Source: Escherichia coli (GTDB lineage: Bacteria > Pseudomonadota > Gammaproteobacteria > Enterobacterales > Enterobacteriaceae). From it: a stretch of DNA of 64,000 nt. The stretch is from NCBI RefSeq assembly GCF_024502345.1, contig NZ_JALDNN010000001.1; one strand, 5' to 3'. Below the pieces are notes generated by a model. It was not told the DNA's origin. It saw only the letters and a program-made list of their open reading frames with translations, and made no database searches. Made by a program: the position numbers and the translations under genes. Of this stretch, positions 29,313-51,692 are shown piece after piece; within the stretch, counting starts at the first letter, position 1; every line of letters starts with the position of its first letter.

Positions 29313-31385
<2,073 letters not shown>

Positions 31386-31393
31386 CTATTAAT

Positions 31394-31430
31394 TGGCTGA
31401 TCGGACTTGTTCGGCGTACAAGTGTACGCT
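31394..31430. promoter_or_regulatory. fabB promoter operators: FadR site next to a FabR palindrome
   Basis: TGGCTGATCGGACTTGTTC (FadR-like) followed directly by GGCGTACAAGTGTACGCT (near-perfect FabR-type palindrome). Confidence 0.55.
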
Positions 31431-31477
31431 ATTGTGCATTCGAAACTTACTCTATGTGCGACTTACAGAGGTATTGA

Positions 31478-32698
31478 ATGAAACGTGCAGTGATTACTGG
31501 CCTGGGCATTGTTTCCAGCATCGGTAATAACCAGCAGGAAGTCCTGGCATCTCTGCGTGAAGGACGTTCAGGGATCACTTTCTCTCAGGAGCTGAAGGAT
31601 TCCGGCATGCGTAGCCACGTCTGGGGCAACGTAAAACTGGATACCACTGGCCTCATTGACCGCAAAGTTGTGCGCTTTATGAGCGACGCATCCATTTATG
31701 CATTCCTTTCTATGGAGCAGGCAATCGCAGATGCGGGCCTCTCTCCGGAAGCTTACCAGAATAATCCGCGCGTTGGCCTGATTGCAGGTTCTGGCGGCGG
31801 TTCCCCGCGTTTCCAGGTGTTCGGCGCTGACGCAATGCGCGGCCCGCGCGGCCTGAAAGCGGTTGGCCCGTATGTGGTCACCAAAGCGATGGCATCCGGC
31901 GTTTCTGCCTGCCTCGCCACCCCGTTTAAAATTCATGGCGTTAACTACTCCATCAGCTCCGCGTGTGCGACTTCCGCACACTGTATCGGTAACGCAGTAG
32001 AGCAGATCCAACTGGGCAAACAGGACATCGTGTTTGCTGGCGGCGGCGAAGAGCTGTGCTGGGAAATGGCTTGCGAATTCGACGCAATGGGTGCGCTGTC
32101 TACTAAATACAACGACACCCCGGAAAAAGCCTCCCGTACTTACGATGCTCACCGTGACGGTTTCGTTATCGCTGGCGGCGGCGGTATGGTGGTGGTTGAA
32201 GAGCTGGAACACGCGCTGGCGCGTGGTGCTCACATCTATGCTGAAATCGTTGGCTACGGCGCAACGTCTGATGGCGCAGACATGGTTGCTCCGTCTGGCG
32301 AAGGCGCAGTACGCTGCATGAAGATGGCGATGCATGGCGTTGATACCCCAATCGATTACCTGAACTCCCACGGTACTTCGACTCCGGTTGGCGACGTGAA
32401 AGAGCTGGCAGCTATCCGTGAAGTGTTCGGCGATAAGAGCCCGGCGATTTCTGCAACCAAAGCCATGACCGGTCACTCTCTGGGCGCTGCTGGCGTACAG
32501 GAAGCTATCTACTCTCTGCTGATGCTGGAACACGGCTTTATCGCCCCGAGCATCAACATTGAAGAGCTGGACGAGCAGGCGGCGGGTCTGAACATCGTGA
32601 CCGAAACGACCGATCGCGAACTGACCACTGTTATGTCTAACAGCTTCGGCTTCGGCGGCACCAACGCCACGCTGGTAATGCGCAAGCTGAAAGATTAA
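31478..32698 (+). CDS. fabB: 3-oxoacyl-ACP synthase I (KAS I)
   Basis: [22 protein letters not shown]…; active-site Cys context ([12 protein letters not shown]); 406 aa. Confidence 0.95.
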
Positions 32699-50798: not shown

Positions 50799-51692
50799 TC
50801 AGCGAACGACATCCGCCAGCGCCTCTTCTAAATCGTACCAGCGAAACGCAAAACCCGCTTCTTCCAGCCGTTTAGGCAGCGCGCGTTGTCCACCTAATAC
50901 CAGTACTGAAGATTCGCCCATTAACAGTCGAATGGCGGTCGCGGGGACGCGCAAAATGGCCGGGCGATGCAGCGCATGACCGAGCGCATGGGCAAATTGT
51001 TCATTGCGTACCGGGTAGGGCGAAACCATATTAAATGGCCCGCGCAGCTCGTTATCCAGCAGCCAGAGAATACCGTTGACCATATCATCAATATGAATCC
51101 AGGCCAGATACTGCCGACCAGAGCCAATCGGCCCGCCCAGGCCAAGACGAAACGGCGGCAGCATTTTACCGAGAATACCGCCATCCGGTGCCAGCACTAC
51201 ACCGGTACGCAGCAGGCACACTCGCGTTTTGTCACTTTGCGCCCGGCAGGCAATTTCTTCCCAGCGGGCGCAGAGTTTATGGGTAAATTCGTTATGCGGC
51301 GGTTCCTCTTCGGTAACCACCACTTCACCTAAGTCGCCATAATAGCCCGTTGCCGAGCCGGAAATGAGTACCGACGGTGGCGTGTCGCTGGCATTAATCA
51401 AATCGACCAGTTTTTGCGTGATATTCCAGCGGCTTTGGCAGAGACGCTCTTTTTGCTCGTGAGTCCAGCGTTTATCAGCAATCGGTTCTCCGGCCAGGTT
51501 GATTACCGCATCAACGCCGTTGAGGTTGCTTTGATCGGCAAGCCCTTGCCATAGTGTCACCCGAGGGCCGAGAACGGAACTGGCTTTCTGCGGGTTACGC
51601 GTCACTACCGTGATTTGATGGCCCAACTCCAGCAAACGCGGGATTAAATGGCGACCAATTAATCCTGTCCCTCCGGTGATCACTATATTCAT
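50799..51692 (-). CDS. yfcH: NAD-dependent epimerase/dehydratase-family protein
   Basis: [16 protein letters not shown]… Rossmann motif; 297 aa. Confidence 0.85.

Follow-up and report, generated by a model that had tools for sequence, protein, structure and literature searches.

Analysis of a 64,000-nucleotide stretch of Escherichia coli DNA (hereafter the window) showed that positions 31,394–31,430 almost certainly form the core regulatory region of the fabB promoter in E. coli, in which a FadR operator and a FabR operator lie side by side. Activation by FadR and repression by FabR of fabB set the ratio of unsaturated to saturated fatty acids in the textbook account, and the feature is a known one: the observation recorded in the initial annotation of this DNA is confirmed and its interpretation is supported. 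The two sites are identical to the published operators, lie at the corresponding distances from fabB and from its published transcription start, share their layout with the paralogous fabA promoter and are strongly conserved between species. The identification thus rests on specific sequence, position and conservation, and not on palindromy alone.

Location and genomic context

The gene downstream of the two sites (31,478–32,698, + strand) encodes a predicted protein of 406 amino acids that matched the NCBIfam equivalog model for beta-ketoacyl-ACP synthase I (NF005935) with 804.9 bits (E 1e-242; cut-off 630), in agreement with the fabB annotation in E. coli genomes. It is followed by a gene for a yfcJ-type MFS transporter. 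The divergent neighbour is mnmC (29,313–31,319, − strand; 949 bits against NCBIfam MnmC), whose start was taken from the K-12 annotation mapped onto the window. The longest mnmC open reading frame (29,313–31,379, −) begins with a TTG at 31,379 and has 688 amino acids; the K-12-annotated start at about 31,319 gives 668. The MnmC family profile aligned from residue 27 of the long reading frame, and this argues for the shorter version in the K-12 annotation and, with it, for a mnmC–fabB intergenic region of 158 bp.

The letters of the window around the sites are ...TTAATTGGCTGATCGGACTTGTTCGGCGTACAAGTGTACGCTATTGTGCATTC.... The FadR-like string TGGCTGATCGGACTTGTTC occurs in a single copy in the window (31,394–31,412, +), as does GGCGTACAAGTGTACGCT (31,413–31,430, +), and the two strings abut. 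A FadR-like site followed by a palindrome, as the initial annotation had described, was accordingly found at exactly these positions. Both operators are situated 48–84 nt upstream of fabB.

A 501-bp query around the site matched 5,425 of 5,426 complete E. coli genomes, with features annotated as fabB and mnmC. Alignment with K-12 MG1655 over 161 bases, made up of the DNA between mnmC and fabB together with the start codon of fabB, revealed a single mismatch: position 31,393, T in the window and A in K-12, belongs to neither site and precedes the 17-bp FadR site by two positions. This base is variable between species (T in 55, A in 32, C in 6 and G in 3 of 96 distinct aligned sequences), and the A of K-12 is also present in the published fabB probes. 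Taken together, the K-12 alignment and the gene matches indicate that the window is part of a non-K-12 E. coli chromosome and that its fabB promoter is the canonical one. The K-12 RefSeq record has no annotated binding-site features; on NC_000913.3, the counterparts of 31,395–31,411 (FadR) and 31,413–31,430 (FabR) are 2,441,672–2,441,688 and 2,441,653–2,441,670.

The FadR and FabR operators

The FadR operator is the 17-bp sequence GGCTGATCGGACTTGTT at 31,395–31,411 (+), about −46 to −30 from the published transcription start, and it agrees letter for letter with the FadR portion of the EMSA probe published for fabB. The FadR string of the initial annotation consists of this canonical 17-mer and one further base on each side (T31394 and C31412). 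The description of the two sites as adjacent holds for the strings, which abut, but the canonical FadR site ends one base, C31412, before the FabR 18-mer. The FadR operator core pattern CTGRTCNGACNTGTT had its sole exact match in the window at this site. In addition, a weight matrix trained only on operators of fad genes (fadL ×2, fadD ×2 and fadBA, from published probe sequences), with fabA and fabB left out, ranked 31,395–31,411 sixth of 127,968 positions, with a score of 10.3 bits; when fabA was added, the site ranked third of 127,968, behind the two fadL operators. The moderate score with the fad-only matrix follows from the difference between the fab-type core (CTGATCGG) and the fad-type core (CTGGTC). 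The fabB site shares 15 identical nucleotides (CTGATCGGACTTGTT) with the fabA FadR site, and positions 31,397–31,411 are invariant or nearly so among the 96 distinct sequences that passed 30/36, almost all of them from Enterobacterales.

The two top matrix matches in the window were the published fadL operators AGCTGGTCCGACCTATA and CACTGGTCTGATTTCTA (11,834–11,850 and 11,858–11,874, −), which belong to the training set, scored 18–22 bits and are located upstream of the fadL reading frame (10,408–11,754, −). The FadR-like site AAGTGGTCTGACCTGAT (12,542–12,558, −), on which the matrix was not trained, scored 13.7 bits and ranked fourth or fifth. It lies 27–43 nt upstream of the fadI reading frame (12,585–13,895), which is followed by fadJ (13,895–16,039), and is probably the fadIJ operator. 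Recovery of the fadL sites and of the untrained site upstream of fadI indicates that the matrix scan finds real fad-regulon sites in the window. One further match, CGCTGGTACGATTTAGA (50,827–50,843, −; 13–15 bits), falls within the 3′ end of a reading frame at 50,799–51,692 (−) and is probably a chance match.

Binding itself, the effects of ligands and the direction of regulation are taken from the literature. The 56-bp fabB EMSA probe TCTATTAAATGGCTGATCGGACTTGTTCGGCGTACAAGTGTACGCTATTGTGCATTC, which contains the site, was shifted by wild-type E. coli FadR and not by the W60G mutant (PMC4259882), and FadR also shifted this probe in PMC4537474. Since the window has the K-12 sequence over the FadR site, it is identical there to DNA shown to bind FadR; the probe carries the FabR site too, and the exact FadR contacts rest on the bold marking in PMC4537474 and on the primary papers. 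Expression of fabB-lacZ was 2- to 2.5-fold lower in a fadR W60G strain (PMC4259882). Reviews and recent work describe FadR as an activator of fabA and fabB that is released by long-chain acyl-CoA.

The FabR operator is the 18-bp imperfect palindrome GGCGTACAAGTGTACGCT at 31,413–31,430 (+), about −28 to −11, following the marking in Table 2 of PMC4537474. In this primer table, exactly these 18 letters stand between the italic markers for a “predicted FabR palindrome,” and bold letters directly upstream mark the FadR site. The initial annotation had called the palindrome near-perfect, which is correct for its 7-nt arms, GCGTACA (31,414–31,420) and TGTACGC (31,423–31,429), on either side of the centre AG; over the full length, however, only 14 of 18 positions are self-complementary, and the outermost bases are asymmetric. 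Ten perfect 7-2-7 inverted repeats were counted in the 64-kb window, so that palindromy alone is not beyond chance, and it was rejected as evidence in itself. The pattern GCKTACANNTGTAMGC had one exact match in the window, at this site, and two matches with up to two mismatches, against 0.54 expected. The site is identical at 13 of 18 positions to the E. coli FabR motif quoted as AGCGTACACGTGTTCGCT (PMC4273635).

Variation of the FabR site between species was limited to the outer base, the centre dinucleotide and the pair 31,416/31,427. The arms are invariant except at these two mirror-related positions, 31,416 (G/T) and 31,427 (C/A), which occur among the 105 loci in the combinations GC (76), TA (11), TC (9) and GA (9), and the centre dinucleotide is free (AG in 64, AC in 37, TC in 4). 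Such mirror-symmetric variation with a free centre is the pattern expected of the site of a two-fold symmetric dimer. According to reviews and recent work, FabR is the main regulator of fabB and represses both fabA and fabB, more strongly with unsaturated acyl-ACP and more weakly with saturated acyl-ACP. ChIP-chip identified fabB as a direct target of FabR in vivo in Salmonella, where the gene is derepressed when fabR is mutated.

The established dual control of fabB to which the initial annotation referred is borne out by the K-12-identical sites, the published probes and several papers in which FadR activates and FabR represses. The operators do not lie elsewhere: the published EMSA probes (PMC4259882, PMC4537474) contain the sequence, and the FabR palindrome is delimited identically. 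Both operators are real and experimentally characterised, and their use as a positive control is valid. The case has calibration value, as two characterised operators were spotted from raw sequence and placed within one base, which supports the ability of that first reading to recognise regulatory sites in the window.

Promoter geometry, conservation and alternative explanations

The transcription start of fabB was mapped by RACE to 37 nt upstream of the ATG (PMC7083825), which corresponds to about 31,441 (+) in the window; the numbering was validated by the CpxR box coordinates of the same paper, which map exactly onto the window. This box, GTAAGgctgcGCAAA (31,366–31,380, +; −75 to −61 from the start), adds a third regulator site to those published for the fabB promoter. 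It is given as −112 to −98 from the ATG in Table 1 of PMC7083825, and the CpxR DNase I footprint reported there extends from −119 to −94, equivalent to 31,359–31,384 in the window. A GCAAATTT block at 31,376–31,383 is moderately conserved across Enterobacterales, and its distance to the FadR site is constant.

Counted from the published start, the FadR site (−46 to −30) is in the −40 region and overlaps the −35, which is an activating position. The FabR site follows directly, in a repressing position: it overlaps the core promoter and shares T31430 with a conserved TAnnGT. A putative −35 hexamer, TTGTTC (31,407–31,412, +), is weak (3/6), invariant across species and embedded in the 3′ part of the FadR operator, 17 bp upstream of TAnnGT. 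Its last base is the single C between the operators (31,412, +), shared by all 96 distinct aligned sequences. The putative −10 hexamer, TATTGT (31,430–31,435, +), begins with the last base of the FabR site and lies 6 nt upstream of the published start; T31430, A31431 and T31435 are invariant in the aligned sequences, and G31434 is 90% conserved. A generic sigma-70 consensus scan gave no promoter above its threshold in this region, which makes both the −35 and the −10 weak, and we therefore infer the exact hexamers from conservation and the published start, with which TTGTTC–17 bp–TATTGT is compatible and in which the key bases are invariant. A weak −35 inside the FadR site is what would be expected of an activator-dependent promoter.

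Together with the published binding and expression data, this geometry gives a likely mechanism. A FadR dimer (GntR family) binds 31,395–31,411, centred near −38 and over the weak −35, and activates transcription, and its release by long-chain acyl-CoA would lower fabB expression. A FabR dimer (TetR family) binds 31,413–31,430, filling the interval between −35 and −10 and touching the −10, and this placement suggests a steric mechanism in which repression occurs by occlusion of RNA polymerase. Unsaturated acyl-ACP/CoA would strengthen repression by FabR and saturated species would relieve it, and both sites may jointly tune the synthesis of unsaturated fatty acids.

Conservation analyses revealed that the 37-mer is present without mismatch over the aligned part in 5,425 of 5,426 complete E. 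coli genomes; the surrounding 501 bp had less than 99% identity in 613 E. coli genomes. The cross-species scan used one genome per species and a degenerate DNA pattern for the first 18 FabB codons, an anchor independent of the operators, and returned 120 loci, 118 of them with at least 100 nt upstream. The 36-nt composite was found at 30/36 or better in 105 of these 118 gammaproteobacterial fabB upstream regions, 77–98 nt upstream of the ATG; unrelated upstream regions reach just 14–18/36. The genera that carry it include Escherichia, Salmonella, Citrobacter, Klebsiella, Enterobacter, Yersinia, Serratia and Pantoea, as well as Erwinia, Pectobacterium, Proteus, Providencia, Photorhabdus, Xenorhabdus and Arsenophonus. 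Among the 96 distinct sequences, the information content was 1.81 bits per column for the FadR 17-mer, 2.00 for the spacer C and 1.82 for the FabR 18-mer, with an average of 0.55 for the flanks (30 nt upstream and 42 nt downstream), these figures having a mild upward bias from anchoring the sequences by their best match of at least 30/36. The composite is thus strictly conserved across Enterobacterales, a cross-species footprint that adds no new principle.

In Edwardsiella alone the two sites are one base further apart, in Rosenbergiella the FadR half has diverged while the FabR site is kept, and the endosymbiont Ca. Gullanella carries a decayed composite. At the Vibrio, Glaciecola, Ningiella and Ferrimonas fabB loci (Vibrionales, Alteromonadales), the composite was absent, in agreement with the report that Vibrio and Shewanella fabB have no FadR site. 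Another conserved block, GGAAAGCYGACCA..., was observed about 60–80 nt upstream of fabB at Vibrio loci L073, L077, L081 and L108, at Ferrimonas locus L120 and in a MAG (L066), none of which has the enterobacterial composite. It is paired with ...AAGTCAGTTATCATTA in Vibrio and is directly followed by a FabR-like AGCGTACACGTGTATGCT in L066.

The strict spacing of the composite raises the question of whether the FadR and FabR sites are interdependent, either as one extended element contested by the two proteins, with FabR requiring flanking DNA as far as the −35/FadR region, or through mutual influence on binding. The single-base separation is invariant, with fixed spacing in 105 species, a review considers different regulators dominant at fabB and fabA, and flanking sequence matters for the binding of ligand-free FabR (PMC4804515). 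The fixed spacing is, however, equally well accounted for by promoter geometry, that is, by the 17-bp spacer between −35 and −10. Conservation also falls into two separable blocks, a FadR 15-mer without symmetry and a FabR site with two-fold symmetry, and the Rosenbergiella locus indicates that a FabR site can persist alone. We therefore regard interdependence as unlikely, and it would refine the main explanation without contradicting it. It is likewise unlikely that the invariant 1-bp register (105 of 105 composite-bearing species, and fabA) means an obligatory interplay of FadR and FabR on the DNA, in which case cooperative or mutually exclusive binding would form a single ratio-sensing switch.

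Two other explanations have next to no probability. The conserved block might be merely the core promoter of an essential gene, resembling operators fortuitously, with neither regulator acting on it; it does coincide with the −35 to −10 interval, and ten 7-2-7 palindromes were counted in the window. Yet spacers are not normally conserved in sequence, and this one has an invariant two-fold symmetric pattern with a free centre. The same 34–36 nt composite is found at the unlinked fabA promoter, the Salmonella ChIP and expression data make fabB a direct FabR target, and published EMSAs show FadR binding the exact probe, so that this explanation counts as refuted. It is just as improbable that the inverted repeat bridging the two sites, ACTTGTTCG/CGTACAAGT (31,405–31,413/31,415–31,423), is a functional unit such as a hairpin, a cruciform or the site of a third dimeric protein. 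With 9-nt arms of 89% complementarity, it is the sole inverted repeat of at least 8 nt in 31,300–31,480, but its arms do not covary: 31,406 is an invariant C opposite 31,422, where 58 distinct sequences have G and 38 have C, and 31,416 and 31,413 vary opposite the invariant 31,412 and 31,415. The repeat is also weaker at fabA (ACTTGTTCAGCGTACACGT). It was rejected as a functional unit for this lack of covariation; it arises as a side effect of the FadR half-site ACTTGT standing beside the FabR half-site ACAAGT. The reading of the stretch as neighbouring FadR and FabR operators is retained.

Comparison with known systems

The closest known system is the fabB promoter of E. coli K-12, whose two operators, −10 region and 5′ UTR have the same sequence as the window. 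It drives the same gene, has the same divergent mnmC and, over the aligned intergenic region, differs only by the A at 31,393. For the K-12 sites, PMC4259882, PMC4537474 and PMC3896788 cite Campbell and Cronan (2001), Zhang, Marrakchi and Rock (2002) and Feng and Cronan (2011); the fabB footprint limits used here come from secondary sources.

The fabA promoter has a composite, AACTGATCGGACTTGTT-C-AGCGTACACGTGTTAGCT, with the same order and 1-bp separation as at fabB, and the two promoters have an identical 16-nt CTGATCGGACTTGTTC. The left arm of the fabA FabR site is GCGTACA as at fabB, whereas its right arm is degenerate (TGTTAGC versus TGTACGC) and its centre is CG instead of AG. The fabA probe, which in both PMC4259882 and PMC4537474 has the layout of the fabB probe, sits 28–83 nt upstream of fabA in E. 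coli. At this promoter, FabR acts as a repressor over the −10 and FadR as an activator over the −40 region (PMC3462791), and in a review FadR is dominant at fabA and FabR at fabB. In contrast to the fabB site compared here, fabA has additional promoters.

The operators of the fad regulon (fadL, fadD, fadBA and fadI) have the same 17-bp architecture and the same regulator, but there FadR represses. Their core is CTGGTC, compared to CTGATCGG in the fab sites, and they overlap the promoter or lie downstream of it, consistent with repression, whereas the fab sites are located in the −40 region, where FadR activates.
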